DNA of 64,000 nucleotides, from NCBI GenBank assembly GCA_013373105.1, contig JABXIJ010000003.1, positions 10,452-74,451 of the forward strand, given 5' to 3'. The notes under the pieces are model-generated. The model did no database searches and was not told the origin of the DNA. It saw only the letters and a list, made by a program, of their open reading frames with translations. Shown piece after piece: positions 40,794 to 57,627 of this stretch. Source of the DNA: Flavobacteriaceae bacterium. GTDB lineage: Bacteria; Bacteroidota; Bacteroidia; Flavobacteriales; Flavobacteriaceae. Position 1 is the first letter of the stretch; the number at the start of each line of letters is the position of its first letter. The translations under genes and the position numbers were made by a program.

Positions 40794-43700
40794 TTATTTT
40801 AAAATAGATACTATTAAATAGCTTACTTTATTTGTTCTATTAAAAATTTCTGTACTTATAGTTTTACTTAAGACTAAGCCTTCAACACTTTGACTTTCAG
40901 AATCATTGAAAATAACATCTATACTTTCTTTATTAGATATTTTATAAATTACGGGAACTTGACAATACGTAAAACACATTTGGTTTTTTTGAATATGTAA
41001 TTGCTTATGATTTCCAGAAACACTTATATAATCAAATACCTCATCAGAGTCTAAAAACTCATTCTTTTTTAATAATCTTGGTTTAAAGGTTATTTTACCA
41101 TCAAAAACAAAAACACCAAGTTCTCCTATTCTACTTAAAATATCTTCTTTTACTTGACCTGTCATACCTGGTTGTTGTGCTCCTTTTGTTGCTGGTGTAT
41201 GTGAATAAGCATCAGTTGGAAAAGCACCATAAAGTTCTGGTGATTTATGCACTCCAATACCAGCATTTATTTCATAATAATGATCAAGTAATTTCCCTAT
41301 TACCACATCACTTTCTTTAGTATTTATAGCTAACAAGCAGTTTTCTTGAACAGCTAAAAGTAATTTTGAAACCATATGCCAATAAATAGAACCTAATCCT
41401 TCATAACCGAAAAAAGTTCCAGAACGTCCAGTAAATGATTTGTGATCAAATATTTCTTCAAAAACCTCAAGAATATATTTTTTCTCTTTTTTTACCAAAC
41501 TTGTATAGTCTTCAGGTAAACTTTCTAGCGCAGTTTTTACACTATTAGCATTATTGAAATTACCATTAAAATGATAGTTCCCTAGAATGTCTTTTTCAAC
41601 AATTGTTTGATTATCATCTTTAATCAATGTTTTAATTAAATTTGATTGTTCAATTTTAGATTTTTCAATATTATTTTTAGCTGTAAATCTTGGTAAGTTT
41701 TTATTAGGATATAATATATAACTATATTGATCTGGTCTAAACAAAGCACTAGCTTTTAATCCGTCTAATAAATCTAAAGCCTCTTGTGGAGACAAATAAC
41801 CTGAACTTAAAGCAGCAACTTGGCCTTCTAACATTTCAGGTAAATACGAAATTGATACTTCTTTTTCGTTCTCAAGCGTCATTAAATTATACGCATGATA
41901 CATATTATCTTTTCGCTTATTTGCTCTAATACTATGATCTAAATATTGCTTAGTCAGCTCAAAAAACTGTATTAGTTCAGCTTTAGAAACTGACGCTTTT
42001 TTAGCTGAAAATCCTTTTTTATAAATAGTGTTTCTATATTCACTAGCAGGAATTCCTACACCATCTAATATGGTTTTTCTTTCTTCATTAGAAACACTTT
42101 TAGATAATATTGTTGCATTTTCATCTAATACTTCAAGAATACTAGTAAACATTTTTGCAACTTCTATTGAAATTTCAACGCTATCAGTATTTGAGTTTTC
42201 AACTACATTTTCAAAAAAGTTTATAAACCTTCTTAAATAATATAATGTAACCATAGAGACACCATTACCAACTAAAGCGTTGTTAGCATCATTCCATTCT
42301 GGGCGTTGAGTATTTAACCAAATACCACCTTCTGGAATAAAGTTTGATACTTTTGCTAAAACTGTAACTAATAATTTCTCTATTAAATTAACCTTATATA
42401 TTGTATTACTTTGATCTCTTAACAAAGCACCATCTGCACCTAATTCTTCTCTTCTTTGCTCTATAATTTCTTGCAATTTATGGTCGAAATCAATTGTATC
42501 TTTTGAGTTTTTTAATATATCTTCATAAGGCTTAATTATATATGGCACATTTGCATAAACAAAAATTTGTTCAGTAAATAACTCATTCAATTTAGCTGGA
42601 TAATAATTTTCTATAAACTCTAAGAATTTTAGTAGATAAATTATTTGATGATCTCCCCAATAACCAATGTAAGACCAAGGGTCATTTTCTTCGATAACTT
42701 CCCAATCGAAACCACCTTTAGTAACTCTGTAAGGATTATATCCTTCAAATGTTGTTGCATTTAAAAACTTATGAATCATACTCTCAATAAACTGAGGATA
42801 TGAATGTGCAAGTGCTTCCCAGTTTTGAAAAATATCACGCCAGTTACCTTCGTAATCTAAAATTTTAGAGCCATCAATCTCACTTTTTGTATTTATAGAA
42901 AACTTATTCCATGGTCTACTTGGGTCTCCATGTCTTCTACTAAACTTTAATGGAAGATACTCTAAACATAAACGTTTAAAATCTGAATTTGAATCTTTTT
43001 CAGCCAACTCTTTAATAAACGATAAGGAAAATTCTTTAGGTAAATTGGCTAGATCAGTTTTTTTAAGTTGATACAACTTCTTATTAGCATTTGCTAAATA
43101 TGTTGTAAAATCATCTTTTTCAATTTTGTAATTGTCATCAAATATTCCACCTCTCATTATATTGAAAAGTGTATTAGAAAAATGACGTATATTTACTAAA
43201 GGATCATCAGATAGTTGTAAACCATCTGAAGCAGCTGCTAATTTTATAAGTTTGTTGGTACCTTCATCTATTGATTGTTGAAGTAGTGCTGTTAAATTCG
43301 ATTCATTTTTAATCAATTCAGAGATACTAACAACATCTGAAACAGACTGATTAACATTAGCAATCTGTATCCAAGATTCTGTACTATTTTCTTCTAAACT
43401 AATTGTTGCAGAAGTAAGGTAAGCACCTTTTTCTGCTTTTACATCAACCTCTTGCGTTAAAGCATTACCATTTCTGAAAGCATCTAATTGAGAAGAGGAC
43501 AATAAGTAGGTTGGGTTGTCTAAACCTAAAGACCAAACAATATTAGCTTTTAAAGCTTCACTTGGTTCTGCTTTATCAACGATTATGGCACTTAGTGCAT
43601 AAATACCTAAACCAACTTCTTCTTCTAATTCACACTTTTTATAAGCATCTACAAGGTTACTTCTGATGCCTTGTAAATCTGCACCAACTCCATAAGGTAA

Positions 43701-44237
43701 AATGTTTTGCATACCATCTAAAACATCAATTTCTAAAGCTTTTGATGAATTATTGGTAAGTCTTGCCTTTCTAACAAAACCATAAGCATCACTTGAGTTC
43801 CATTCGTATTGAAATGAAAGGTTTAAATCATAATTTATTTCCTCAAAAATGATTTTATTTCCATAGATATTTTTGTAAATATTTCTTTTTGTTTGATAAA
43901 TACCTGCTTGTCTTTCCGAAAAAGGTTCCCAAAGTTTAGTAACTGAACCATCTTTAAATCTAAATATGGTTTTACTACCTGTTGTTTCAGCTAACTGAGT
44001 AATTTTATCATCTGTATAATAAGGAAATAAAGAAAAGTCTGCATTTTTTCTACCAGCAGTTAAACCACCATTGCTTGAAATAAACATCCAATGATTAGAG
44101 TCTGAAACTATAGTCATAAAAAAAGGTCTCATTCTATGACTGTTAGCTATTTTATAAAAAGTTTCACCTTCTATATTTACTAAACTTCCAGCTACTTTAT
44201 CTTTAGAAATTTCTTTTTGAATAATTGAATTGTTCAT
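40794..44237 (-). CDS. Large cytoplasmic protein, candidate GH149-like beta-1,3-glucan phosphorylase (the ORF is certain; the family call is tentative)
   Basis: It is 1147 aa with no signal peptide. GNWRDIFQNWE (residues 464-474) and RPEWNDANNAL (residues 645-655) resemble the RDxxQ and (D)WND catalytic-Asp blocks of GH94-type (alpha/alpha)6 phosphorylases as I remember them. The gene context is GH3/GH17/GH30/MFS. Confidence 0.45.
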   Translation of the reverse strand: MNNSIIQKEISKDKVAGSLVNIEGETFYKIANSHRMRPFFMTIVSDSNHWMFISSNGGLTAGRKNADFSLFPYYTDDKITQLAETTGSKTIFRFKDGSVTKLWEPFSERQAGIYQTKRNIYKNIYGNKIIFEEINYDLNLSFQYEWNSSDAYGFVRKARLTNNSSKALEIDVLDGMQNILPYGVGADLQGIRSNLVDAYKKCELEEEVGLGIYALSAIIVDKAEPSEALKANIVWSLGLDNPTYLLSSSQLDAFRNGNALTQEVDVKAEKGAYLTSATISLEENSTESWIQIANVNQSVSDVVSISELIKNESNLTALLQQSIDEGTNKLIKLAAASDGLQLSDDPLVNIRHFSNTLFNIMRGGIFDDNYKIEKDDFTTYLANANKKLYQLKKTDLANLPKEFSLSFIKELAEKDSNSDFKRLCLEYLPLKFSRRHGDPSRPWNKFSINTKSEIDGSKILDYEGNWRDIFQNWEALAHSYPQFIESMIHKFLNATTFEGYNPYRVTKGGFDWEVIEENDPWSYIGYWGDHQIIYLLKFLEFIENYYPAKLNELFTEQIFVYANVPYIIKPYEDILKNSKDTIDFDHKLQEIIEQRREELGADGALLRDQSNTIYKVNLIEKLLVTVLAKVSNFIPEGGIWLNTQRPEWNDANNALVGNGVSMVTLYYLRRFINFFENVVENSNTDSVEISIEVAKMFTSILEVLDENATILSKSVSNEERKTILDGVGIPASEYRNTIYKKGFSAKKASVSKAELIQFFELTKQYLDHSIRANKRKDNMYHAYNLMTLENEKEVSISYLPEMLEGQVAALSSGYLSPQEALDLLDGLKASALFRPDQYSYILYPNKNLPRFTAKNNIEKSKIEQSNLIKTLIKDDNQTIVEKDILGNYHFNGNFNNANSVKTALESLPEDYTSLVKKEKKYILEVFEEIFDHKSFTGRSGTFFGYEGLGSIYWHMVSKLLLAVQENCLLAINTKESDVVIGKLLDHYYEINAGIGVHKSPELYGAFPTDAYSHTPATKGAQQPGMTGQVKEDILSRIGELGVFVFDGKITFKPRLLKKNEFLDSDEVFDYISVSGNHKQLHIQKNQMCFTYCQVPVIYKISNKESIDVIFNDSESQSVEGLVLSKTISTEIFNRTNKVSYLIVSILK

Positions 44238-44311: not shown

Positions 44312-44348
44312 GAAAAAAAAAGATGATGACAGCTAAGCTATCATCATC
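44312..44348 (-). terminator. Rho-independent terminator after GH16
   Basis: The stem gatgatgacagc / gctatcatcatc (one mismatch) is followed on the minus strand by a T10 run (A-run 44312-44321 on plus). Confidence 0.7.
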
Positions 44349-44362
44349 GTAAATAAATTTTA

Positions 44363-45193
44363 TTAATTAAAAACTCTAATGTAATCAATCTCCATTGTTT
44401 GTGGGAAAACTGTTTCAACATTTGGGCTACCCGCAAATGAACCTCCAACAGCTACGTTTAAAATAATATAGAATTCTCTATCGTTAAACACCCAATTTGT
44501 ACCATCTGGTAAATCATCTGGAGTTATTTGATTATAAAGAACATCGTCTACATAATAATTAATATAGTTTGGTCCCCATTCTATACCATAAATATGGAAT
44601 TGAGTATCTAATCTTGCATTTAAATCATAACTTTTAGTAACAGCATTACCTGCAGAGTAACCTGGACCATGAATTGAACCATGGGTTATAGTAGGTTCAT
44701 CACCTCTATTTTCCATGATGTCAATTTCACCAATATTTGGCCAACTTACAGAACCATTTTCATCATCACCTAACATCCAAAAAGCAGGCCATAGGCCTTT
44801 ACCCCATGGTAATTTTATTCGAGCTTCAAAACGACCATATTTTTGTTGAAATAAACCTTTGGTTAAAATTCTTGCAGATGTATAACCTGCACCCATATAG
44901 TTTTCTTTTATTGCTGTAATTTTTAACACGCCATTTTCTACCTTCACATTTTCTGGTCTTGCTGTATAGTACTGTAATTCATTATTTCCCCAACCAGGAA
45001 TTCCTTGAGCAGTACCATCACCGATTTCATAAACCCATCTGTTTATGTCTGGTGCACCAGAATTATCAAAATCATCGCTCCAAACTAAATTATTAAGTGA
45101 AGTCACCGTTTGTGTTTCTGAGTTTTCACAACTAGATAATACTGCTAATACTAACGCAACAAAACCTAGCCTATTTATTTTATTAAGCTTCAT
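44363..45193 (-). CDS. GH16 family endo-beta-1,3-glucanase (laminarinase), lipoprotein
   Basis: It has a lipobox (LSSC), the canonical GH16 catalytic motif E-I-D-I-M-E (GEIDIMENRG), and WPAFWMLG. Confidence 0.9.
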   Translation of the reverse strand: MKLNKINRLGFVALVLAVLSSCENSETQTVTSLNNLVWSDDFDNSGAPDINRWVYEIGDGTAQGIPGWGNNELQYYTARPENVKVENGVLKITAIKENYMGAGYTSARILTKGLFQQKYGRFEARIKLPWGKGLWPAFWMLGDDENGSVSWPNIGEIDIMENRGDEPTITHGSIHGPGYSAGNAVTKSYDLNARLDTQFHIYGIEWGPNYINYYVDDVLYNQITPDDLPDGTNWVFNDREFYIILNVAVGGSFAGSPNVETVFPQTMEIDYIRVFN

Positions 45194-45204: not shown

Positions 45205-46620
45205 TTATTTATAGAAATAGATATTATCTAAATAGAAGTTTGTAAGTGATGAAAAATTAATATTTTCAAAAATGAGTATGCCAACATTACTTTTATTTGT
45301 TAAACCATTCAATGAAAATTCAATAGTCATCCAAGAGTCTGCAACAATACTTGGTGTTTTTCTAACAAATAATTGGTGTCTTGTATCATCTGTGCCACCA
45401 TTTACTCCATCAGGACCAAAATCTACTACGGTTACTAAAAAATCGAAATTAGACGGAACTCCATTAGGTATATACATATTAAAATGTAAATTCGGTAGCG
45501 AAGTTATGTCAATTGTAGGATTTGAAAATTGAATTCCTACGAAGTTAAAGTTCGTATAATTTAAAAAATTATCTCCGTTTACACTAAAATCTGCTGATTC
45601 AGTGGTTTGATAAGGTTGCCAATATCCATTATAGAAATCTACAGTAGTATTTGTATAATAATCACTAAAAATTGAAATAACATCACTAGCATTTCGTGTA
45701 GGTGTTGGTGGTAATGAAAAAGAACCGATAGAATTAATATTCAAGGATCCTTTCACATCTTCTCCTCCTAAAGTTGCTGAAACTACTGCAGTTCCTGCAG
45801 AAAGTATTTCTACAACTCCTAAATCATTTACTGAAGCCACTGATGGATTTGATGAAGAAAAAGTAAAATATTTAGGTGCTGCTGCAATTGTTACATCTCT
45901 ACCATTACCTAAATTAAATGTTTGATTTAAATCAGTAATATCTATATTAACCCCAATAAATGTATTTACAGAAACGTCATTACCATTTAAAATTGATGGT
46001 CTTGGTTGAGCAATAGTTCCCAGCTTTTCGAACTTTAATTCGTCGATCCAAAATGTATATCCTAAACCATTTGTTGCTTGTGTACCTGCTGAATATCTAA
46101 ATAAACCTCTTTCTTGAATTAATTTAGAGGCATCTGGAATTGGAATGATAACTTTTTGCCAATTAGTACCAACACTAACATTTGATAATGTAGTTATATA
46201 CTCATTATTAATAAAATCTTCTCCAAAACCCAGCTCCCCTATTACGACTCCTTGTGATGCTTTAATCCAAAATGTTAAGGCATCGTAATTGGTTAAATCT
46301 CTACCTGCTCCCTCCACTCTAAAAATTGCTCCTGCGTAGGTTCCTTCTGGGTCAGTTGCATTTGGTACATCAAAACGCATTGATGAACTACTTTCGTATC
46401 CTTCACTATCATCTACAGACCAAGCTGTTGCTTTAGAGCCACGATAAGGAAAGTAGAAATCGCTACCCATTCCTACAGGACTGTCTGTAAATATTTCTGC
46501 TGTAGAAGCAAAACTAGCTAAAACAGCATCATCACTTATATCTCTTTCACACCCTAAAAACACAAGCGCAAGAAGTAAAGTTAAGATTGTTTGATTTTTT
46601 ATTTTTTCTAAACTCTTCAT
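45205..46620 (-). CDS. Surface glycan-binding-type lipoprotein (CBM-like N-domain, Big_2 Ig-like domain, shared C-terminal module)
   Basis: It has a lipobox (FLGC) and a Big_2-like segment FTFSSSNPSVASVNDLGVVEILSAGTAVVSATLGG. The C-terminal module PTRNASDVISIFSDYYTN...YLDNIYFYK spans 45208-45702. No catalytic motif was seen. Confidence 0.65.
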   Translation of the reverse strand: MKSLEKIKNQTILTLLLALVFLGCERDISDDAVLASFASTAEIFTDSPVGMGSDFYFPYRGSKATAWSVDDSEGYESSSSMRFDVPNATDPEGTYAGAIFRVEGAGRDLTNYDALTFWIKASQGVVIGELGFGEDFINNEYITTLSNVSVGTNWQKVIIPIPDASKLIQERGLFRYSAGTQATNGLGYTFWIDELKFEKLGTIAQPRPSILNGNDVSVNTFIGVNIDITDLNQTFNLGNGRDVTIAAAPKYFTFSSSNPSVASVNDLGVVEILSAGTAVVSATLGGEDVKGSLNINSIGSFSLPPTPTRNASDVISIFSDYYTNTTVDFYNGYWQPYQTTESADFSVNGDNFLNYTNFNFVGIQFSNPTIDITSLPNLHFNMYIPNGVPSNFDFLVTVVDFGPDGVNGGTDDTRHQLFVRKTPSIVADSWMTIEFSLNGLTNKSNVGILIFENINFSSLTNFYLDNIYFYK

Positions 46621-46632
46621 AATCTCTATCTA

Positions 46633-49600
46633 TTATTTTCCAATATTTATATGAATATATGTTCTTATTTCCCACTCAGAACCATTAGGAAATCCTACAG
46701 GACTTATAGTAGGCTGAGTTGCAAATGCAGTTGAAGTAGCATTTGGTGAATATCTTGGAGAAAATTCATTTAAAGATCTCCAAGTTCCTCTAATTCCAAC
46801 TTTAGTATCTGGCAGTATAAACCAATCTGGTTTACCAATTGTAGTTGAAAAGTCTAACATCATTTGTAATGGAAAAGTTAAGTTGAAATCTCTGTGGTAA
46901 TCAAAAGGTCCCCAATCATTAACTTTAAACATTCCCATAATTTTAAATTTCTTGTAAATCATTCTTAGGTCTGCACCAAATCTTGTGATAGTTCTTTGAC
47001 TATCACCATTTGCTTGGCCTGTACCATAATACATATTAGCAATTATACCTAAGTTTTTATTTGCTTTTGAAACAATTCTAGAATTTACTTCCCATAAATC
47101 TTGTGCTGGAGCAGATTCTGCAAATCTAAAGAAAGAACGATCTGCTAAGAAACCAATAGCAGCATCCTGTGTAGTTGGTAAATGACGATATACAAAGCCA
47201 AGATTAAATGCAAACTTAGCATCTTCTGCTCTATCATTATCCCATTGATACATATAAGTTGCAGGAGTTGGATCGAATGTAAATAAAATTTCACCTGCTG
47301 TCATTTCTCGGTTTCCACCTCTTACAACAAAAGGATCGTCAACAAAGTTTCTTAATCTACCTGGTGCAGCAACACCATTTGGCATGGCATCTACTAAGGG
47401 CTTTTGCCACATAAAGTTTGGTGCTAACTGAAATTTACCTCCAAAATTATAAGCTATACCAGATAAGAAGTTTGATACGTTTCCACTTCCACTATCTTTT
47501 AATTTCCAACCTGTGAAAGTAAGTGTTTGATCTGCTCCTCCATTTGCAACTAAACCTCTAACAGAGCCTTGTGCATACAAGTTAAATCCTCCATTAGTAT
47601 AAGTTACTTTTGCTTTAGCACCCCAGTTATCACTTGCTTTAATTCTATCTACTACAACTTGACCTGCATCATTAACATCTTGATAAGCACTACCATTTAA
47701 TGGTCTACCAGCCCAAATTGCACCTACTGTTAAACCAATTTTATCTCCTTTTTTCTCAAAAGCTACTGTAGCTCTTTCAGTAGGAATTGCTGGTATAACA
47801 CCTGTTCTAGCTTGATTTGGATCTAAAACACGATTACCATTAGCATCAAAACCACCACCAGCAACAATATCTTTATGATAAATAGCTGCAAAATCAAAAC
47901 CTAATAGTTTCGTTTGGTATTTTAACAATACTGCAGGGTTGGCACCCCACCAAAGTTGTGGACCAAAGGCTGCTTTTAAACCATCTAATGAACCTTTACC
48001 ATCTACTTCAATTCCTAGAATTTCACCATTATAAATATCTAAGTTTGGTCCATAATTAGCTTCTGGATATAACCCAAAAAAGTCACCTTCATAACCCCAA
48101 TGATAATGTCCTGTTCTGTAGAAACCTCTTAAATTAAAATCTTTAGCATTCCATTCAAAAGAAGCATTATAAATTCTTAATCTATTATTATCTATTAATG
48201 TTGAAGAACCATTAGGTGTATTAACCTGAATAGGTCTACCAATATTTTCATAAAAAATATCATCTATTGGATTACTTGCTACATTTCCTAAAATATTAAA
48301 ATTAACCTCGGCTTTCATATTTTCTGATGGTTTACCTTGAACACCAATAAAATAAGACTGCATATGATCAAAACCTTGTCTGTCAGGAAATGCTAAACTT
48401 GTACCATCTGAATTTACTGGAGTTGTAGTTAATGAACCACCTGTATTAAATGTAGTAAATTGTGCTTGTAAATTGCTTATACTTAGCTTTTGGTTTCCAC
48501 CTATTACAGCTTTATCTCCTCTAGCTCTTAGTACAGCATCCATTAAGTTTATTTTTTCGAAATGATTTTCAAAATCCTGATATGTACTTGTAAACGGATT
48601 AAATTGATGTGCCTCTTTTAAAGCATAATATGATGCTCTTGGATATAAAGTGTATAAACCTCTAACATCTGTTGGTCCTTTTGCAGCAATTCCAAACCAC
48701 TCTTCGTTCATGTTTTTATCTCCTGGTTTTGCCTGATCTCTACTGTAACCATTACTTGGCCAAGAAGCTTCACTATCGTGAATACTTGCATTTTTTCTTT
48801 CGTCGAAACCAGATTTAAACCAACCATCACTAGACTGAAAAGTAAATCCTCCTAAAGAGTTTTGAGCTTTTCCTAGACCATAAGCGTTTTCGTAAATTTC
48901 TTTCCAGTTATTTATCATATAGTACGCTTGGGTATATTGATCTTCTTTGTTATCTCTTGCATTAAACGCATCAGCTCCAAACTCTGTAAATAAAATAGGT
49001 TTACCATACTCTTTACTTACTCTATCAAAAGCATCTACAAAAGATTCTCCACGATACATATTTGTTCCATAAATATCTATGTCTTTACATTCTTCTGCAA
49101 CTATGTCTAAATAAAGTAAATCTCCATTACAAATACCTATAGGATGTTGTACACCATTTTTTTTCATTGCTAAAGCAGCATCATTAAACAATTTATACAT
49201 TGCTTTTGCTTCTGCTCTTTTTGCTTGATCTTGATCATTAATTACAATTCCTTCATCTGTTTCAGCTCCTTCCCAAGTTAAATGATAGTTATTTTCATTA
49301 CCTAACATAAAAAGAAGTAAGCCTGGTGTATCTTTATACATTTTGGCCATTTTAACAGATTCCTCTATTAAGTGCTTTCTTACTTTTTCTGTAGCATATT
49401 TAGTATTAGGGTACCATACACCGTCTAAGGTTAAACCATATGCACCAAACTGATGGTTAATCATTGTATAAATACCAAATTTTTCATAGATATAGGTAAT
49501 CCATTTTGGTGGCATACCTATATATGTTCTTATTGCATTTACACCCATATTTTGCCATAGCACCATTTCTTCATCTAAACCTGCTTTTATAATATCGTCT

Positions 49601-49806
49601 GGTTTATCCCAAAAATTAGCATCTAATACATTAAAACCAATTGGTACATAATCCCAATTGATTCCATTTACCACAAAGTCTTTTCCATCAACTACTAATT
49701 TCATTCCTTTTGCATCAGAAACAACAGTTACATTGTTGACTTTTGATTGTGCAAAAAAGTTAAGAGTTAACAAGAAAAACAGTAATCTTAATACATTGTT
49801 CTTCAT
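46633..49806 (-). CDS. Clan GH-A (beta/alpha)8 glycosidase-like domain fused to a ~620-aa beta-barrel-like C-terminal domain
   Basis: It has a signal peptide. LGNENN (E171) and ILFTEFG (E275) lie about 104 aa apart, like the acid/base and nucleophile Glu of clan GH-A. Residues ~440-1057 are Gly/Asn/aromatic-rich with many alternating strands (KAKVTYTNGGFNLYAQGSV, LSGIAYNFGGKFQLAPNFMW, ADLRMIYKKFKIMGMFKV). Confidence 0.55.
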   Translation of the reverse strand: MKNNVLRLLFFLLTLNFFAQSKVNNVTVVSDAKGMKLVVDGKDFVVNGINWDYVPIGFNVLDANFWDKPDDIIKAGLDEEMVLWQNMGVNAIRTYIGMPPKWITYIYEKFGIYTMINHQFGAYGLTLDGVWYPNTKYATEKVRKHLIEESVKMAKMYKDTPGLLLFMLGNENNYHLTWEGAETDEGIVINDQDQAKRAEAKAMYKLFNDAALAMKKNGVQHPIGICNGDLLYLDIVAEECKDIDIYGTNMYRGESFVDAFDRVSKEYGKPILFTEFGADAFNARDNKEDQYTQAYYMINNWKEIYENAYGLGKAQNSLGGFTFQSSDGWFKSGFDERKNASIHDSEASWPSNGYSRDQAKPGDKNMNEEWFGIAAKGPTDVRGLYTLYPRASYYALKEAHQFNPFTSTYQDFENHFEKINLMDAVLRARGDKAVIGGNQKLSISNLQAQFTTFNTGGSLTTTPVNSDGTSLAFPDRQGFDHMQSYFIGVQGKPSENMKAEVNFNILGNVASNPIDDIFYENIGRPIQVNTPNGSSTLIDNNRLRIYNASFEWNAKDFNLRGFYRTGHYHWGYEGDFFGLYPEANYGPNLDIYNGEILGIEVDGKGSLDGLKAAFGPQLWWGANPAVLLKYQTKLLGFDFAAIYHKDIVAGGGFDANGNRVLDPNQARTGVIPAIPTERATVAFEKKGDKIGLTVGAIWAGRPLNGSAYQDVNDAGQVVVDRIKASDNWGAKAKVTYTNGGFNLYAQGSVRGLVANGGADQTLTFTGWKLKDSGSGNVSNFLSGIAYNFGGKFQLAPNFMWQKPLVDAMPNGVAAPGRLRNFVDDPFVVRGGNREMTAGEILFTFDPTPATYMYQWDNDRAEDAKFAFNLGFVYRHLPTTQDAAIGFLADRSFFRFAESAPAQDLWEVNSRIVSKANKNLGIIANMYYGTGQANGDSQRTITRFGADLRMIYKKFKIMGMFKVNDWGPFDYHRDFNLTFPLQMMLDFSTTIGKPDWFILPDTKVGIRGTWRSLNEFSPRYSPNATSTAFATQPTISPVGFPNGSEWEIRTYIHINIGK

Positions 49807-50036: not shown

Positions 50037-50085
50037 AAAAAAACTTCACTTAAGAATAAGAGGTTAGCAATGCTAACCTCTTATT
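50037..50085 (-). terminator. Terminator after the susC-susD-SGBP unit
   Basis: The 14-bp perfect stem aataagaggttagc / gctaacctcttatt (50055-50085) starts 20 nt after the stop of the 304-aa gene. On the minus strand a T7 run follows 11 nt later. Confidence 0.7.
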
Positions 50086-50105: not shown

Positions 50106-51020
50106 CTATTCAATTTCAATTACAAACCACCAATCAAAATCACCAGCAGCATCTGTAGTTCTTAGTACTAATTCATTTGGTACTGATCTATCAAAAATTT
50201 CGTACTGATAATTCCCTCCAGTATAATATCCTATGAAAGATTTTGCTGATAAATTTATAGTTTCTACTCCTGCAGGAGCTGTTAATGAATAAGTTCCTGT
50301 ATAATCTGCATAAGCATAATTTAGAATATCTGCACCATCAACTGTTCCTGAGGTATTTGGACCTAGTTCGTTAACGATGTGAGGATCTCTTCCAAAAATG
50401 TCTCCATTAGTAACATGAGTAAATGTACCATCTGAACTAAAAGTAAATCTATCATCATACATACCTACTCCATTTTTTTCATCTGGGCCTGCTCCATACC
50501 ATTCTGTTGGTATAGAACCTCCAACTGGACCTAAACCAAAATGACCAGGTTTAGAAGCTTTAATTTTCCAAGTTCTTGAGGTTAATGCAGTTGGGTTTGC
50601 TGGATCAAAACCGTACAATTTTTCTATTAAATCATTTGGTGGTGAGTAAGTAGCTAAAACATCAACTTGAATTGATTTACTAGAGGTAACTCCTGCTGTA
50701 CCTGATGCTACAGCAGTAACAGTATATGTATTTAATCCTAATTTACTAAATATTATGTTTTGCTCTCCTGAGAGTGTAACATATTCTGTACCATCGTAAA
50801 CAAGTTTAAATGAAACTGCATTGTCTGCAGTTACTGTAAATTTAACTTCTCCACTTCCATCACCATTTGGATTATTTGCATCTGCTCCTATTAAATCAGC
50901 AGTAATTTGAATATTTGAAGGTGTAATGATATCTCCAAATGTATATTCTTCTTCTTGACAACTATAAAAAGTAATTGACAAAGAAAATAATACAATTAAT
51001 GTTTTTATATAATTCTTCAT
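50106..51020 (-). CDS. PKD/Ig-like domain surface lipoprotein (SGBP-like)
   Basis: It has a lipobox (FYSC). An Ig/PKD-like domain (VKFTVTADNAVSFKLVYDGTEY...YTVTAVASG) is followed by a ~180-aa C-terminal domain. It occupies the position downstream of susD typical of SusE/F-like binding proteins. Confidence 0.65.
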   Translation of the reverse strand: MKNYIKTLIVLFSLSITFYSCQEEEYTFGDIITPSNIQITADLIGADANNPNGDGSGEVKFTVTADNAVSFKLVYDGTEYVTLSGEQNIIFSKLGLNTYTVTAVASGTAGVTSSKSIQVDVLATYSPPNDLIEKLYGFDPANPTALTSRTWKIKASKPGHFGLGPVGGSIPTEWYGAGPDEKNGVGMYDDRFTFSSDGTFTHVTNGDIFGRDPHIVNELGPNTSGTVDGADILNYAYADYTGTYSLTAPAGVETINLSAKSFIGYYTGGNYQYEIFDRSVPNELVLRTTDAAGDFDWWFVIEIE

Positions 51021-51030
51021 TTTTTAAAGA

Positions 51031-53082
51031 TTAAAATTGTGTAATATCATCTATATATATTGTATAATTTGCAGAACCATCTCCTTGAGTACCATTATCC
51101 ATAATTAATACTAGATTATTAAAATCTACTGATGTACTAATTCCTGCAAAATTAAACGTTAATTCTTCCCAAGCATTTGCTACAGTTGTTGTAGCTGTTA
51201 CTTCTGCAGAAGCAACTGTATTTGGCCAAGGTGTAGCATCTTCAAATTTTAAAAGTAAATTCAATCCTGCTCTTGGTGACCAAACTTTAACTTTTACACT
51301 TGTTCCACCTACAAAAGTAAATGGAGAATTTGTTGTTATTTTAGAACCTGCCCAAGGCTGACCTGCATTTTTTACCATTTTAGCAACTCTTAAAGAAGAG
51401 TTTCCGTTTGTATCTGGATTATTAATTATTGAAATATCTCCACCATCAAAACTAGATAAACCAACTGTTGGCTCTAAATCTAAAACTGGTGAAGTTGAAA
51501 TATCATCTACATAAATTGTATAATCTGCAGAACCATCTCCTTGAGTACCATTATCCATTATAAGTACAAGATTGTTAAAATCTACACTACCATCAATACC
51601 CGTAAAATCAAAGGTTAATTCTTCCCAATCATTGGCAACTGTTGTAGTTGAAGTAATTTCTGCTGAAGCAACTGTATTTGGCCAAGGTGTAGCATCTTCA
51701 AATTTTAAAAGTAAATTTAATCCTGCTCTTGGTGACCAAACTTTTGCTTTTATAACTGGGTTAGAAAGATCAAATTTAGTAGGTACTGTTATTTTAGAAC
51801 CTGCCCATGGTTGACCTGCGTTTTTAACCATTTCAAATACTCTAGAAGAAGTATTTATACCTGAAACATCTGGATTAGCTATCGCTTGTATAGCGCCACC
51901 ATCAAAAGAACTTAAGGTAAAATTATCTTCAAAATTAATTGGAGTTACACCATTAAAAGGCACTGATGGTGATTTGTAAAAATAGAAATTATCGATATAA
52001 ACTACACCTGCTAAACCATCAGAATCAATTAACAATTGTGTAATCTTTTGTTTATTTGCTAGGTTTCCACCATCAAAACCTGTCATATCAATTTCAATAC
52101 TCTGCCAACTACCAGTAACTGTACTACCAAGTGATTCTAAGTCTTCACCACCATCAACAGTATTAACAATTTTTACAAAAAGTTCATTGGTAACTCCATC
52201 TGGTACCCAGTAATCTATATGCATTTTCTCCATTGCAGATAAATCAACTCCTGCCCCATAGTTTGTAACCATACCTAAAAAGTCAAGATTAGTTAGTTTC
52301 CAAACATTATCGTTATTAAGATTAACAGCTTCAAAGTTTGTTGCTGACCAAGTTGTTGGTAACTCATCTAGTGTAACATTTGTATATGCATCACTAAAAA
52401 TTGAAACAACATCTGCTGCATCTCTGCTTGGTGGGGCTGGTGCTGCTTCAGTTGGTTCTAATATTTCAGTAACTTCAAAATCTACCATGTAATCTGTAGT
52501 TGCAATAGCTGCACCTTTTGCAGTTACTTTAACACTGTAAGTTCCAGGATTTGCATATTGATAAGATATAGTGTTACCAATATTTCCTGTAACTACTGGT
52601 TGTGTTACACCTGTTTCACCTGAATCAAATTCAAAAATTGCTGCAAAATCTGCATTTGCTGTAATGTTAACTTGTTTAGAAATAGCTGCATCATTTTCTA
52701 TGGTAACCACTAAATTTTGAGGAGCATTGAATGAAACCACTAACTGTTGTGATTCTTCTACTCTATCTCCTTTTAAATTTATAGCTACAACAGTTACATT
52801 GTATGTGCCTTCTGCATAGGTGTGCGTAACACTATCTCCTAAACCAACTTTAGCTGGCTCTGGAGTTGTATCTCCAAAAATGACTTCGAAGCTAACAGCG
52901 CCATCTGCATTTGGTGTAATTGTAACAACACCTGTATTATCTTGAGTAATGTCGTAAGTTGCTGAAATATTACTTGGTGGAGCAATAGTATCTACAAACG
53001 ATAAATCTCTGAGTTCTTCATCACATGCCATTAAAATGAACAGTGCAAAGAAATATTTATAAAATTTATTAATGTTTTTCAT
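51031..53082 (-). CDS. Multimodular surface glycan-binding lipoprotein: two PKD/Ig-like domains, the shared module, and two tandem CBM-like repeats
   Basis: The ATG at 53082 gives MKNINKFYKYFFALFILMAC (lipobox). There are two PKD-like domains (GVVTITPNADGAVSFEVIFGD; YSVKVTAKG). The shared module PSRDAADVVSIFSDAYTN...IDNFYFYK spans 51973-52434. Two 152-aa repeats follow. Confidence 0.75.
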   Translation of the reverse strand: MKNINKFYKYFFALFILMACDEELRDLSFVDTIAPPSNISATYDITQDNTGVVTITPNADGAVSFEVIFGDTTPEPAKVGLGDSVTHTYAEGTYNVTVVAINLKGDRVEESQQLVVSFNAPQNLVVTIENDAAISKQVNITANADFAAIFEFDSGETGVTQPVVTGNIGNTISYQYANPGTYSVKVTAKGAAIATTDYMVDFEVTEILEPTEAAPAPPSRDAADVVSIFSDAYTNVTLDELPTTWSATNFEAVNLNNDNVWKLTNLDFLGMVTNYGAGVDLSAMEKMHIDYWVPDGVTNELFVKIVNTVDGGEDLESLGSTVTGSWQSIEIDMTGFDGGNLANKQKITQLLIDSDGLAGVVYIDNFYFYKSPSVPFNGVTPINFEDNFTLSSFDGGAIQAIANPDVSGINTSSRVFEMVKNAGQPWAGSKITVPTKFDLSNPVIKAKVWSPRAGLNLLLKFEDATPWPNTVASAEITSTTTVANDWEELTFDFTGIDGSVDFNNLVLIMDNGTQGDGSADYTIYVDDISTSPVLDLEPTVGLSSFDGGDISIINNPDTNGNSSLRVAKMVKNAGQPWAGSKITTNSPFTFVGGTSVKVKVWSPRAGLNLLLKFEDATPWPNTVASAEVTATTTVANAWEELTFNFAGISTSVDFNNLVLIMDNGTQGDGSANYTIYIDDITQF
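51034..51936 (-). repeat. Intragenic tandem duplication, period 456 bp (152 codons), two copies
   Basis: Copy 51034-51480 is collinear with copy 51496-51936. A 79-bp tract with one mismatch starts at 51209 and at 51665 (gaagcaactgtatttggccaaggtgtagcatcttcaaattttaaaagtaaatt...). There is a further identical 33-mer tgcagaaccatctccttgagtaccattatccat. Confidence 0.9.
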
Positions 53083-53093
53083 TGTTTTAGTTT

Positions 53094-54575
53094 TTAATAA
53101 CCTGGGTTTTGTGGCCAACGATTTCCAGCTAAAGAGATTTCGATTTCTGGTATTGGAAACAATTCGTGTTTACCAGCTACAAAACCATTAATTTCTTGAA
53201 CTGCTCTACCTGTTCTTACTAAGTCAAAAAACCTATGTCCTTCACCTACTAATTCTACCCTTCTTTCATCTAAAATATTATCGTAAAGGGTATTTCCTGT
53301 TGCAGAAATATTATTACTAGTATTACCAAATGCTCTCTCTCTTACTCTATTTAAATAAGCTTGAGCTTTAGTATCATCTGGAGTTGAGCTTCTATTAAAA
53401 GCTTCAGCTGCCATTAATAAGACATCTGCAAAACGTATTGCTCTATAGTTATTTGGGTTAGTTAAATTTCTATCTCCTTGAGCAGCATTACTTCTTGTTC
53501 TAGGAATATACTTTCTATTAAAATAACCTGTATGTTCATAACCAGTACCATATGTTGCACCTGTTTGGTTAGCCCAAGCTACAATATCTAAAATAGCAAC
53601 ATCTTTACGTAAATCTCCTGGCTGAAATGCATCTACAACTTCTTGCACAGGTACATTAAAACTAAATCCTGATGAATACTCTGGTCCTGAATAAGCTCTA
53701 ACCCCATTAAAACCAACTGCAACATTACCCTCACTACACTGTAAACATCCAAAACCCGCACCTTGTCCTTCAAAATATTGAACTTCAAAAACAGACTCTA
53801 TATTATTTTCGCCTGCTTCTTCAAAAATCGATGCATAATTTTGAACTAAATCATAAGGCCCATTTTGAATTAGGTTTTCTAAAACTGAAGCTGCTTCATC
53901 AAATTTATTTTGATATAAATATGCTTTTCCTAACAATGCTTGAGCAGCTCCTTTTGTAACTCTACCAGGAGTAGATTGCACATAAGGCAAAATACTAGCT
54001 GCATAAGTTAAATCTGCTTCAATCTGTGCATAAACATCTGCTTTTGGTGTTCTATCTATATTAAATTGTTCACCAAACTGAATTCTTTTATCTACTTCTA
54101 AAGGTACATCTCCAAACCACTTAACTAATTCAAAATAGTAATAAGCTCTGAGGAAAGTTGCCTGTGCAAGAATTTGATCTTTTCCTGAAAAATCAATTTT
54201 ATCTTTAAACTCAAGAATGTAATTTGCTCTATTTACACCAGCATACATCCAACTCCAAATATCTCTTAATTGTTGATTTAATGGAGTGTGTCTCATATCA
54301 TCAACTTCTTGAATTCCTAAAACATCTGTTGCACTTTCACCTCCTGCTAAAGTATTGTCTGATGCAATTTCACCTAGCATTACATTTAGATAAGTTGATT
54401 GCAACATATCGTAAGCACCAATTAATGCATCTTCGTAATCTTGAGGTGTATTAAAAAAGTCTTCTGAATTGTCTGAAGTAGGTTTTACCTCAACAAAATC
54501 ATCGCTACATGAGTAATTAAATCCGATAAAAAGGACTAAACTCAATAAAATTTTTATGTTTATTTTTTTCATCAT
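53094..54575 (-). CDS. susD: SusD/RagB family nutrient-binding outer-membrane lipoprotein
   Basis: It has a lipobox (NYSC) and TPR-like helical SusD blocks (RAYYYFELVKWFGDVPL, GKAYLYQ, RFADVLLMAAEA, ERRVEL.GEGHRFFDLVR). It lies directly downstream of susC. Confidence 0.9.
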   Translation of the reverse strand: MMKKINIKILLSLVLFIGFNYSCSDDFVEVKPTSDNSEDFFNTPQDYEDALIGAYDMLQSTYLNVMLGEIASDNTLAGGESATDVLGIQEVDDMRHTPLNQQLRDIWSWMYAGVNRANYILEFKDKIDFSGKDQILAQATFLRAYYYFELVKWFGDVPLEVDKRIQFGEQFNIDRTPKADVYAQIEADLTYAASILPYVQSTPGRVTKGAAQALLGKAYLYQNKFDEAASVLENLIQNGPYDLVQNYASIFEEAGENNIESVFEVQYFEGQGAGFGCLQCSEGNVAVGFNGVRAYSGPEYSSGFSFNVPVQEVVDAFQPGDLRKDVAILDIVAWANQTGATYGTGYEHTGYFNRKYIPRTRSNAAQGDRNLTNPNNYRAIRFADVLLMAAEAFNRSSTPDDTKAQAYLNRVRERAFGNTSNNISATGNTLYDNILDERRVELVGEGHRFFDLVRTGRAVQEINGFVAGKHELFPIPEIEISLAGNRWPQNPGY

Positions 54576-54582
54576 CTTTAAT

Positions 54583-57500
54583 TTAAAAGTTAACATTCAT
54601 ACCAAATAAAAATGTTTTTGGGTTTGGATAAAACCCTTGATCTATACCACCTCCAATAGACGCGCCATTAGAAGTTGTTGGATCAAATCCTCTATAATTA
54701 GTTAGAGTGAATAAATTTGTAGCAGAGACATAAAATCTTAATTTATCAAATTGTAATTTTTTTAACATTTTTTCACCTAAGCTATACCCTAACTGAACAC
54801 TTTGTAATCTTAAAAAAGAACCATCTTCTACATAAAAATCTGAGAATAAAATGTTTCCTGTAGCTCCAGTTGTTACTCTTGGAAAAGTATTACTTGTTCC
54901 AGGACCTGTCCATCTATCTAAATAGTAAGTTGGTCTGTTAGTTAATGGTAAATTTCTTTCATAGTTTCTTACAATTTCGTTACCAATAGATGCGAATGCA
55001 TAGGCATTAAAATCGAAATTTTTATAGTTAAATGAGAAATTAAAACCCATAGTTACATCTGCAAATGGATCTCCAATATAAGTTCTATCATCACTATTTA
55101 TAACACCATCTCCATTTACGTCTACAAAACGTAAATCTCCTGGTGCAGCATTTGTTTGAGTAGCATGTGAATTAACATCTGCTTGAGTTTGAAAAATTCC
55201 ATCAGTTTTATATCCATAAAAATATCCAATAGGAAAACCAGCTTCCATTCTTGATGGTGGCTCTTGACCAACTCCAAAAGAACCTCCTTCTATAATACCA
55301 GTTTCATTTCCAACAAAAGTTACTTCGTTCTTTATAAATGTAGCATTGTAATTTATATTAAAATTAAAATCTTCATTTACTGCTTTCCTGTATCCAATAG
55401 CAAACTCAAATCCTTCGTTTACAACAGTACCTGCGTTTATAAATGGCACTGATGAACCTGGTGCTGCAACCCCAATTATACCTGAAGTTTGTGCTGCTAC
55501 TAAAAGATCATCTGTAGTTTTTCTAAAGTAATCTGCAGTAATATTAATATCGTTAAATATTTCCATATCAATACCAATATCTAATGGTTTTTGCTGCTCC
55601 CATCTAATTTCAGGGTTTGCAATTGGCCCTATAGCTAAACCTTGTTCAAGTTGATTGTTGAAAACATACTCTGCTTCACCATTTAAAACAGAAACAAATC
55701 TAAATCCACCAATTCTATCATTACCAAGAATACCATAACTTGCTCTTAACTTTAAAAAATTAATTACACTGTTGTCTTTTAAAAAGTCTTCTTCAGAAAT
55801 AACCCAACCTAAAGATGCAGTTGGGAAGAATCCAAATTTATTCTGTGGTCCAAAATTTGTTGAACCATCTCTTCTTAATACTGCTGAGAATAGATACTTA
55901 CCATCATAAGAATATTGCAATCTTGCAAAATATGAAAGTAATCTACTGTCATAAGATAAGCTTGAGCCATTATTATTATTTCTGTAGATAGCCAAACCAT
56001 CTCCATTTAATACTGGGTTACTTATAACTACATCATTTAAACTAGTACCTGTTGCATTACTAGTTAAAATTGTATTAAACCTTCCAACAGTTTTAAAAAC
56101 TGATGTACCTATCATTGCTTTTACGTCATGTACATCATTATAAACTCTTTCATATTTTAAGAAAGCATCAAAAGTATAATCATATCTACTTATCTCATAG
56201 TCTACAAAAGTAGATTGGTCTATATTAAATACACTTCCATTACCAAAGTTTCTTATTCTGTTAAAAGTATTTGCAGTTTCAACTGAATGATTAGCTTGAA
56301 ATCTTGTTTCTGCAGTGAAATAATCGTAAAACTTATAGTTTAAACCATAACTTCCGGAAATTTTATTAACCCAAGTTCTGTTATTAGCATTATCAATTTG
56401 AGTTAATGGGTTTGCTACTTCAATACCTGTACCTGTTGCAGGTGGCAAAGAAAAATCACCATTTGCATTGTATACAGGAGTTGTAGGTGGCATATTCACT
56501 GCATTAAATAATACTGAACCTAAAACATTTTCTGGTAAGTTTTTCTTATTTGTATTTGTGTATATAGTAGATGATGTAAATTTTAAATTTTCGAGTATAT
56601 CTGTATCAAAATTAAACCTAACATTTCTTCTGTTAAAGTTAGATTTTGAACCTCCAACAATACCATCTTGACTTATAGCAGATATACCTAATGAATAGGT
56701 AGATTTTTCTGTACCTTTATTTAAGGTGTAATCTATATTGTATTGAGCTGCATTTTGAAAAACAGAATTCTGCCAATTAGTTCCTTGTCCTAAACCACTT
56801 ACATTTGGAAAAGGCAAAGCATCTCCATTTGCTGCAAAAGCTTCATTTGCTAATAATACATATTCTGTCGCATTTAATAATGGTATTTCTCTTGTAGTTT
56901 GTTGAAAACCTACAGACATATTTAATATTGATTTAAAGTCTGTATTTTTTCTACCACTTTTAGTAGTTACTAAAATAACACCATTTGCAGCACGAACTCC
57001 GTATATACCTGCAGCAGCATCTTTTAGAATATTTATAGACTCAATATCTGAAGGGTTAACAACACTTAGGTCTTCTATAACTCTACCATCTAAGAGAATT
57101 AAAGGTCTACTGTCTCCATTTGTTGAGACACCTCTAATTCTAATGTTTGATCCAGCACCAGGAGAACCAGAATTTTGTGTAATGTTAACACCTGCAACTT
57201 GACCTTGTAAAGCTTGCTCAATACGAGTTGGCTTTAAGTCTTCTATAGTTGCACTACCTACTACAGTAACAGCACCTGTTACTTCTTTCTTAGTTTGTGT
57301 ACCATAACCAATAACAACAATCTCATCTAGAGTTTCTGCTGATTCAGATAATGATACATCAATAGTTGATTGATTAACAACAACTTCTTTGTTCTGATAA
57401 CCTAAATATCGAAAAACTAAAACATCTCCAGTTTTTGCTTTAATGTTGTAAATTCCATCAAAGTCTGTTTCAGTTCCAATAATAGATCCTTTAATAAGAA

Positions 57501-57627
57501 TGCTAACTCCAGGTAATACCTCACCAGTAGTTGCATCTTTAACAACTCCTTTTACATCTATAGTTTGTGCAGCTATATTTGCAACACAAAAAAGAGTGAG
57601 GAGTAATAAGATTAGATTTTTTCTCAT
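54583..57627 (-). CDS. susC: SusC/RagA family TonB-dependent outer-membrane transporter
   Basis: The signal peptide is followed by a CarboxypepD_reg-like domain (VKGVVKDATTGEVLPGVSILIKGS). A plug domain follows (LQGQVAGVNI, IRIRG...PLILLDG). A ~800-aa barrel ends in an aromatic residue (...GMNVNF). Confidence 0.95.
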   Translation of the reverse strand: MRKNLILLLLTLFCVANIAAQTIDVKGVVKDATTGEVLPGVSILIKGSIIGTETDFDGIYNIKAKTGDVLVFRYLGYQNKEVVVNQSTIDVSLSESAETLDEIVVIGYGTQTKKEVTGAVTVVGSATIEDLKPTRIEQALQGQVAGVNITQNSGSPGAGSNIRIRGVSTNGDSRPLILLDGRVIEDLSVVNPSDIESINILKDAAAGIYGVRAANGVILVTTKSGRKNTDFKSILNMSVGFQQTTREIPLLNATEYVLLANEAFAANGDALPFPNVSGLGQGTNWQNSVFQNAAQYNIDYTLNKGTEKSTYSLGISAISQDGIVGGSKSNFNRRNVRFNFDTDILENLKFTSSTIYTNTNKKNLPENVLGSVLFNAVNMPPTTPVYNANGDFSLPPATGTGIEVANPLTQIDNANNRTWVNKISGSYGLNYKFYDYFTAETRFQANHSVETANTFNRIRNFGNGSVFNIDQSTFVDYEISRYDYTFDAFLKYERVYNDVHDVKAMIGTSVFKTVGRFNTILTSNATGTSLNDVVISNPVLNGDGLAIYRNNNNGSSLSYDSRLLSYFARLQYSYDGKYLFSAVLRRDGSTNFGPQNKFGFFPTASLGWVISEEDFLKDNSVINFLKLRASYGILGNDRIGGFRFVSVLNGEAEYVFNNQLEQGLAIGPIANPEIRWEQQKPLDIGIDMEIFNDINITADYFRKTTDDLLVAAQTSGIIGVAAPGSSVPFINAGTVVNEGFEFAIGYRKAVNEDFNFNINYNATFIKNEVTFVGNETGIIEGGSFGVGQEPPSRMEAGFPIGYFYGYKTDGIFQTQADVNSHATQTNAAPGDLRFVDVNGDGVINSDDRTYIGDPFADVTMGFNFSFNYKNFDFNAYAFASIGNEIVRNYERNLPLTNRPTYYLDRWTGPGTSNTFPRVTTGATGNILFSDFYVEDGSFLRLQSVQLGYSLGEKMLKKLQFDKLRFYVSATNLFTLTNYRGFDPTTSNGASIGGGIDQGFYPNPKTFLFGMNVNF

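Follow-up and report, generated by a model that had tools for sequence, protein, structure and literature searches.

Few carbon fluxes in the ocean are larger than that of laminarin, whose uptake by Bacteroidota is at present attributed to surface GH16 enzymes together with SusC/SusD. Why, then, would a laminarin polysaccharide utilization locus (PUL) encode, in addition to these proteins, a glycosidase joined to what looks like another outer-membrane barrel? This question is raised by a stretch of 64,000 nucleotides from a Flavobacteriaceae bacterium (assembly GCA_013373105.1, contig JABXIJ010000003.1, positions 10,452 to 74,451 of the forward strand; hereafter the window, whose own numbering is used throughout), which carries a laminarin PUL with all genes on the minus strand. 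The gene in question (46633..49806) encodes a protein of 1057 aa, in which a GH158-like enzyme is predicted to be fused to an outer-membrane β-barrel. An earlier examination of the letters and open reading frames (ORFs) without database searches, hereafter the sequence-only reading, had proposed such a fusion and suggested that the barrel could be an anchor or a glycan pore apart from SusC. Here, we find that the fusion is kept across phyla, and we regard the barrel as most likely a TonB-independent channel for laminarin-derived oligosaccharides.

The ORF starts with ATG and ends with a stop codon at 46633-46635. More than 4488 homologues were found for the encoded protein, the best 120 of which are all 1023-1073 aa long, cover 96-100% of the query and belong to Flavobacteriaceae such as Polaribacter, Kordia, Winogradskyella and Tenacibaculum. 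In alignments of Flavobacteriaceae proteins as well as in cross-phylum alignments, conservation of the C-terminal part equals that of the enzyme part. The number of homologues, their near-full coverage and the conservation of the C-terminal part indicate that the gene is not a chance ORF.

The C-terminal half of the protein (residues 441-1056, 616 aa; 46639..48486) was predicted to form an outer-membrane β-barrel of ~24 strands. Residues 440-1057 had been noted as carrying no recognizable glycosidase or carbohydrate-binding module (CBM) motif, and neither Pfam nor NCBIfam gave a match to this region at E ≤ 0.01. Furthermore, eight members of the barrel family gave nothing relevant against Pfam even at E ≤ 1, and sequence and profile searches against the PDB found no match for the barrel region, matches to GH2 and GH158 proteins being confined to the enzyme part. 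A barrel-only AlphaFold2 model, for which an alignment of 109 sequences was built from a search with a stand-alone homologue (see below), had a predicted local distance difference test (pLDDT) score of 82.9 and a predicted TM-score (pTM) of 0.84, with the five models ranging from 81.2 to 82.9 in pLDDT, and contained ~24 long antiparallel strands. When this model was searched against the PDB with Foldseek, 330 matches were obtained at E ≤ 0.001, and the top 50 are all outer-membrane barrels, including BtuB, FepA, PfeA, FrpB, ZnuD, PirA, LptD, MOMP, OmpC, OccK and BenF-like porins. A run of long hairpin strands was already visible in the full-length model, and LptD and BtuB were among its Foldseek matches. 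The model and its structural neighbours agree with the outer-membrane look that had been ascribed to this region and place it among barrels rather than among soluble β-sandwiches, solenoids or CBM arrays; the five strand-like peptides that had been quoted are all present and map to predicted strands 12-13, 14-15, 17, 20-21 and 22. As modelled, the barrel is clear in its fold class and is without a close solved relative.

The turn/loop pattern, strand amphipathicity and the C-terminal residues were examined as three checks independent of Foldseek. Turns of 2-3 aa follow the even strands 2, 4, 8, 10, 12, 14, 18 and 20, and loops of 20-36 aa follow the odd strands 1, 3, 5, 9, 11, 13, 15, 17 and 23, a parity implying that both termini of the barrel are periplasmic. 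Averaged over 77 sequences, the two strand faces have Kyte-Doolittle hydropathies of +1.03 (hydrophobic face) and -1.08 (polar face), a difference of 2.16, which exceeds that of control windows (1.11 ± 0.79), and conservation is higher on the polar face (entropy 1.56 vs 1.95). Outer-membrane β-signals end in an aromatic residue, and in most of the homologues from other phyla that were inspected, an alternating final strand is followed by a terminal Phe or Tyr, the terminal residue of one of them (P0126) being Leu; the last strand of the window protein is amphipathic. Together, these data support the prediction that the C-terminal half is a membrane barrel. Two of its segments are conserved as motifs. 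In FYRTGHYHWGYEGDFFGLYPE (residues 562-582; 48061..48123), part of the long loop that joins strands 5 and 6, F562, H569, W570, G574, D575 and E582 are invariant across phyla. The other, DPTPATYMYQWDNDRAEDA (residues 845-863; 47218..47274), lies in the segment between strands 16 and 17, which is unusually long and presumably periplasmic.

The N-terminal half (residues ~25-400; 48607..49734) was predicted from its AlphaFold2 model, Foldseek and a profile search to be a (β/α)8 catalytic domain of clan GH-A. The top Foldseek matches of the full-length model were 9oro, 9p26 and 9p25 (E from 7e-11 to 1e-10), of which 9oro is GH158(Pro). A cross-phylum profile of 77 sequences retrieved 9oro (3e-7) and 6pal (BuGH158; 1.6e-5) from the PDB, followed by GH2 β-galactosidases. 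A Flavobacteriaceae profile gave weak GH2 and GH158 matches (E 0.003 for GH158), a single-sequence PDB search found no GH158 chain, and Pfam returned for this part a sub-threshold Glyco_hydro_cc match only. The relationship to GH158 is remote, with ~15% identity in the Foldseek alignment and a sequence likeness that was detected by the cross-phylum profile. Nevertheless, GH158, which had been offered as a guess, turned out to be the closest family by fold and by sequence profile. In databases, members of the fusion family are labelled 'glycosidase' or 'GH2 TIM barrel-domain containing protein'.

The ORF, the candidate acid/base E171 in the GNEN motif (LGNENN; 49294..49296) and the candidate nucleophile E275 in the TEFG motif (ILFTEFG; 48982..48984) all lie exactly where the sequence-only reading had put them. 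In the profile alignments, GNE of the target is paired with GNE, and TEFG with TEFG or TEWG, in 9oro and 6pal, the Glu pair thus aligning with the catalytic motifs of both solved GH158 enzymes. N170, E171 and E275 are invariant in the 77 sequences from several phyla and correspond to N136, E137 and E220 of BuGH158, mutation of which abolishes activity (PMC7157763). Fold, profile and motif evidence together suggest that the domain is a distant GH158-like clan GH-A enzyme, presumably a retaining β-1,3-glucanase, which, judging from these residues, is probably catalytically competent. The eight-stranded Ig-like domain of BuGH158 is absent from the target model, where helices (residues 391-435) are followed by the barrel strands; DSSP assignment on the full-length model delimits a helical linker between enzyme domain and barrel at residues 409-435 (48502..48582). 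An N-terminal 'VTVVS' segment was considered as a TonB box and dropped; it aligns with the first β-strands of the GH158 fold.

Where would the enzyme domain reside? The protein begins with a signal peptide (MKNNVLRLLFFLLTLNFFAQ, residues 1-20; 49747..49806) of the signal-peptidase-I type without a lipobox Cys. Its leader (...LNFFAQ/SK) contains no Cys, and the SusC leader of the same locus is alike. Judged by eye, SusC and the target are the only exported proteins of the locus with this leader type; lipoprotein-type leaders were assigned to SusD, the PKD protein, the 304-aa and 471-aa proteins, GH16, GH3, the first GH17 (37645-38928) and GH30, and no leader was seen in GH149 or the second GH17 (33638-34555). 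Because the turn/loop parity puts both ends of the barrel in the periplasm, the enzyme domain, which precedes the barrel, is predicted to be periplasmic as well.

The distribution of the family bears on its function. A barrel-only search of cluster representatives yielded 481 representatives, most of which carry the barrel at ~460-1060 of proteins of ~1000-1100 aa. Genomes were also scanned, and 80 loci were recovered from Gammaproteobacteria (Thiotrichales, Leucothrix, Thiomicrorhabdus, Hahella and Woeseiaceae), Mariprofundus, Cloacimonadota, Geomonas and other Desulfuromonadales, Gemmatimonadota, Nitrospinota and Bacteroidia. When these were examined by tblastn for how constantly orthologs keep the fusion, 74 of the 80 had the TIM domain and the barrel in one ORF, two had the barrel alone and the remaining four were interrupted by the end of a contig. 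Almost all loci additionally contain GH16, GH30, GH17, GH149 or an MFS (major facilitator superfamily) transporter. These data show that the fusion is conserved across phyla and exclusively associated with β-1,3-glucan catabolic genes. The presence of both parts in one polypeptide is thereby confirmed, and the architecture, which had been thought unusual for a PUL enzyme, is not rare but widespread. The barrel family is found in two-membrane lineages, except for one locus (L027) labelled Acidimicrobiia, a label that we suspect to reflect mis-binning of a metagenome-assembled genome (MAG).

No match to SusC or SusD was found in any of the 80 loci. In addition, Plug and TonB-dependent-receptor families are not among the 25 commonest of the 97 Pfam families recorded for 55 otherwise unclassified large ORFs that neighbour the fusion in 39 long loci, suggesting that TonB-dependent receptors are at most rare near the fusion outside Bacteroidota. 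There, with neither SusC/SusD nor receptors among the commonest neighbours, the barrel is the only evident outer-membrane component.

The barrel also occurs without the enzyme. Stand-alone barrels of 575-620 aa, with signal peptides of their own, form ~45 clusters. Hits of ~590 aa had been considered as truncated gene calls, and many genome loci do carry the full fusion, yet real stand-alone genes exist. In a gammaproteobacterial locus (L001), the gene order is Opp-type ATPases, LacI, GH1, GH16, GH16-CBM4_9, barrel and a type I secretion set; in Marinobacterium sp. xm-a-152, it is a substrate-binding protein, two permeases, two ATPases, LacI, barrel and GH16. The loci with stand-alone barrels are the 'Type I' β-glucan cluster of the GH149 paper, a proteobacterial cluster with an ABC-type (ATP-binding cassette) importer that was remarked to have no outer-membrane transporter gene (PMC5827456).

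In 66 of the 80 loci, a conserved gene for a lipoprotein of ~210 aa lies directly downstream of the fusion gene (for example, L074 11624-12286, L039 11915-12571, L040 11755-12474 and L014 11809-12435). These lipoproteins match no Pfam family and share motifs including ELPTD..LYC.D.GV and FYLWATAL. No homologue was found in the window, in the stand-alone loci L001 and L002 or in L008 and L080. The lipoprotein may be a partner of the barrel.

The stand-alone barrels in importer loci, the position of the barrel as the only evident outer-membrane component outside Bacteroidota and its conserved polar strand face all point to a channel role. The earlier idea of a glycan pore apart from SusC is strengthened both by the stand-alone barrels in ABC-importer β-glucan loci and by the lack of prominent TonB-dependent receptors near the fusion outside Bacteroidota, the pore function itself being deduced from this context. 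We consider it rather probable that the protein as a whole is a β-1,3-gluco-oligosaccharide channel with a tethered periplasmic GH158-like enzyme, the presumed substrate being β-1,3-glucan or laminari-oligosaccharides. The enzyme domain would hang from the N-terminus of the barrel on the periplasmic side, and at this position it would cut chains as they leave the channel. The short products would then be taken up by the MFS transporter encoded in the locus, a step that an ABC importer would perform in other bacteria, and be phosphorolysed by the cytoplasmic GH149.

Several observations weigh against this proposal. The full-length AlphaFold2 model is weak (pLDDT 67, pTM 0.48), and therefore does not predict how the enzyme domain is placed with respect to the barrel. 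TM-scores of the barrel to solved barrels are 0.3-0.4, and its strand number and lumen size are model values. The window protein ends in ...YIHINIGK without an aromatic residue; this caveat of the sequence-only reading stands for the aligned Flavobacteriaceae proteins, in which K1057 is nearly invariant, but not for the other-phylum homologues, which mostly end in Phe or Tyr. A plugless barrel of 24 strands would be leaky if its lumen were not narrowed by loops or by a partner protein, and the ~210-aa lipoprotein, a possible constricting partner, is missing from Flavobacteria. The receptor census covers 25 of the 97 Pfam families, so that one or two receptors could be hidden. Moreover, a second import route is not obviously needed in a PUL that has SusC/SusD, and BuGH158 is predicted to be a cell-surface enzyme, which would favour surface display of the target domain (PMC7157763).

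A bolder form of the channel proposal, which we hold as possible but doubtful, is that the fusion is a self-contained, TonB-free import machine, in which the glucan threads the channel and GH158-like hydrolysis ratchets the chain inwards. A linear β-1,3-glucan chain would be caught at the periplasmic mouth by the tethered enzyme domain. GH158(Pro), the closest solved relative, is processive and mostly releases laminaribiose (PMC13195107); if the target domain were processive in the same way, laminaribiose would be handed directly to the importer (MFS or ABC) and from there to GH149. If true, this would provide Gram-negative bacteria with a second, enzyme-driven route of polysaccharide uptake beside SusC/SusD; the loci of Gammaproteobacteria, Cloacimonadota and Desulfuromonadota would have no other route across the outer membrane.

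Other explanations of the architecture were weighed against the channel proposal. The order of an N-terminal passenger, a helix (residues 421-435) and a C-terminal barrel resembles type V secretion, and the barrel might accordingly translocate the glucanase and anchor it outside the cell, where it would cut laminarin alongside GH16. The predicted surface location of BuGH158 (PMC7157763) would suit such autotransporter-like display, as would the fact that Proteobacteria are without the lipoprotein surface-export route used by Bacteroidota. However, the barrel has ~24 strands over 620 aa, compared to 12 or 16 strands in autotransporters, and one helix could not fill a lumen of this size. The ~45 clusters of stand-alone barrels in β-glucan loci are passenger-less, the conserved polar face with its many invariant charged residues suggests a functional lumen, and a surface GH16 lipoprotein is already encoded in the locus; we therefore regard surface display as quite unlikely. 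It also seems unlikely that a plugged or closed barrel transports nothing and serves to fix the glucanase to the outer membrane from its periplasmic side, for instance by the exit of SusC. The presence of SusC/SusD in the PUL and the long conserved loops, which could fill the lumen, are in keeping with a pure anchor, but the stand-alone barrels have nothing to anchor, and outside Bacteroidota there is neither a SusC/SusD match nor a TonB-dependent receptor among the commonest neighbour families. A barrel of 620 aa would also be a costly anchor compared to the lipid tail that, by our account, every other exported enzyme of the locus uses.

An arrangement like that of LptD/LptE, in which the barrel and a lipoprotein in or on it bind and pass glucan chains, would refine the channel model and does not truly compete with it. 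The partner would be the ~210-aa lipoprotein in other phyla and the flanking 304-aa or 471-aa lipoprotein in Flavobacteria. Its appeal lies in the lipoprotein gene that directly follows the fusion in 66 of 80 loci, in the LptD and LptDE structures among the Foldseek matches and in the lipoprotein genes on both sides of the target in the window. Considering that the ~210-aa protein matches no Pfam family and has no homologue in the window, L001, L002, L008 or L080, we judge this arrangement very unlikely. Finally, a soluble β-rich domain, such as a CBM array or a β-solenoid, might have been wrongly closed into a barrel by AlphaFold. This would fit the absence of sequence matches to known outer-membrane protein families, the low TM-scores to solved barrels and the non-aromatic end of the window protein. 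It is hard to reconcile with the pTM of 0.84 and the agreement of the five models (pLDDT 81.2-82.9), with the top 50 structural matches being membrane barrels throughout, with the occurrence of the family in two-membrane lineages (L027 excepted) and, above all, with the model-independent evidence of turn/loop alternation, amphipathic strands and homologues ending in Phe or Tyr. Such an artefact is extremely improbable.

The proposed channel with its tethered enzyme was further compared with known systems. The endo-acting and processive GH158 β-1,3-glucanases BuGH158 (6PAL) and GH158(Pro) (9ORO) have the clan GH-A TIM barrel and the N-E and TE(F/W)G motifs in common with the target, and, like the target, they are found in β-1,3-glucan loci. 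BuGH158 is a lipoprotein of ~400 aa with a C-terminal eight-stranded Ig-like domain (PMC7157763), whereas the target has a signal-peptidase-I leader and, in place of the Ig-like domain, a membrane barrel of 620 aa. LptD and the target are both very large barrels with an N-terminal periplasmic domain (predicted to be so in the target), and LptD has 26 strands and is accompanied by LptE. Their likeness is structural only, with no sequence relationship and no Pfam match on the barrel. Unlike LptD, the target occurs in a context of glucan catabolism, not of lipopolysaccharide export, and its N-terminal domain is an enzyme; a lipoprotein gene adjoins the fusion in other phyla, but no homologue of that lipoprotein is present in the window.

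SusC and other TonB-dependent transporters are, like the target, large outer-membrane barrels of glycan utilization loci, and TonB-dependent transporters gave the best Foldseek E-values for the barrel, with TM-scores of 0.3-0.4. However, the Pfam scan that found the Plug domain of SusC gave no Plug match in the target, which has a GH domain at the plug position and ~24 strands instead of 22. The maltoporin LamB, the chitoporin ChiP, CymA and KdgM/NanC have the role that is proposed here for the barrel, passive oligosaccharide uptake feeding an inner-membrane importer. These channels have 12-18 strands and no sequence relationship to the barrel family, and none of them is known to be linked covalently to a glycosidase. 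Type V autotransporters such as the esterase EstA share with the target the order of enzyme, helix and C-terminal barrel. Their translocator barrels have 12 or 16 strands in about 250-300 aa, compared to ~24 strands over 616 aa in the target, which moreover has passenger-less relatives in the same kind of locus.

Within the PUL, the target follows, in the direction of transcription, genes for a Y_Y_Y/LuxR regulator (57838-60636), SusC (54583-57627; Plug match in the Pfam scan mentioned above), SusD (53094-54596), a PKD lipoprotein (51031-53118) and a 304-aa lipoprotein without a Pfam match (50106-51020). The gap upstream of the target is 299 nt long and contains a 14-bp terminator-like hairpin (50055..50085, z = -5.7), which lies 3' of the 304-aa lipoprotein gene. 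Twelve nucleotides downstream of the target is the gene of the 471-aa lipoprotein (45205..46620), which has a Big_2 match and a sub-threshold CBM30-like match. It is followed after 11 nt by the gene of the GH16 lipoprotein (44363..45193) and then by a second terminator-like hairpin of 12 pairs and a T-run (44322..44348). The 299-nt gap with its hairpin, the short gaps within and the hairpin after GH16 make a three-gene sub-operon of target, 471-aa lipoprotein and GH16 plausible from the nucleotide sequence. The lipoprotein and GH16 genes are thus the neighbours that the sequence-only reading had named, and its view that the target heads a sub-operon of its own is plausible on the same grounds. 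A scan for sigma-70 promoters was uninformative (32 sites vs 37 expected from shuffles). Both lipoproteins that flank the target (304 aa and 471 aa) probably bind glycans at the cell surface, with binding modules that are unclassified.

Downstream of the GH16 hairpin, an ORF of 1147 aa without a signal peptide (40794..44237) was identified as a GH149 β-1,3-oligosaccharide phosphorylase by its match to PDB 6hq6 (E = 0, residues 13-1146); it has no Pfam match. It had been considered as a paralogue of the fusion architecture, a possibility that did not hold up. Homologues of GH149 are located near the fusion gene in many of the other-phylum loci. The PUL continues with GH3 (38990-40789), GH17 (37645-38928, lipoprotein-type leader), GH30 (36159-37643), the MFS transporter (34574-36139) and, 18 nt downstream of the MFS gene, the GH17 without a signal peptide (33638-34555).

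Some further features of the window and of the other loci were recorded. The 932-aa regulator at 57838-60636, upstream of SusC, has Y_Y_Y and LuxR/GerE domains and an N-terminal hydrophobic segment, and resembles the BguR-type laminarin regulator described in Formosa agariphila (bioRxiv 10.64898/2026.01.10.698779). GH17 and MFS are separate genes in the window, unlike the GH17-MFS gene fusions reported in Formosa and gammaproteobacterial laminarin loci (PMC10108472). Just upstream of the PUL lies a GH97 gene (alpha-glucosidase family; 61109-63226, minus strand), which is probably part of a neighbouring alpha-glucan locus. On the other side, the last PUL gene is followed after 250 nt by the gene of a 634-aa protein that carries a type IX secretion C-terminal sorting domain (31483-33387, minus strand). 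In one homologue, P0126 (1351 aa), the usual enzyme-barrel unit appears by eye to be preceded by a second TIM-like domain of degenerate look and by a linker rich in Pro and Ala. In Thiomicrorhabdus sp. Milos-T2 (L008) and Mariprofundus sp. UBA1536 (L026), the fusion is accompanied by GH16, GH149, GH30 and MFS genes. Both genera are known as chemolithoautotrophs, and the presence of the fusion hints at unexpected β-glucan use or at turnover of self-made glucan.

In the literature searched, we found no described laminarin porin or GH-barrel fusion, and no description of this fusion or of its membrane barrel as an already characterized architecture, most subscription journals lying outside the coverage, so that a prior account is possible. 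The family analysis in the structural paper on GH158 kept catalytic domains only. Automated CAZyme (carbohydrate-active enzyme) annotation assigns GH158 genes to laminarin loci of Formosa agariphila, Woeseiaceae and Cloacimonadota (bioRxiv 10.64898/2026.01.10.698779; PMC12175321; PMC12590816), and an earlier study lists 'GH149-GH0-GH16_3' in comparable laminarin loci, where the 'GH0' gene was among the 10% of genes with the highest expression in an Aurantivirga MAG from a bloom (PMC10108472). These GH158 genes, and likewise the 'GH0' gene, may belong to the fusion family.

The family is abundant and already present in databases; what seems undescribed is the covalent pairing of a putative outer-membrane channel with a GH158-like enzyme. 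The fusion belongs to a common, GH149-containing type of laminarin PUL. If the barrel is a channel, it would constitute a second, probably TonB-independent, route across the outer membrane, and it would supply the outer-membrane component reported missing from the proteobacterial ABC-type β-glucan clusters. A glycosidase covalently coupled to an outer-membrane pore would, if true, represent a new design principle for glycan import.

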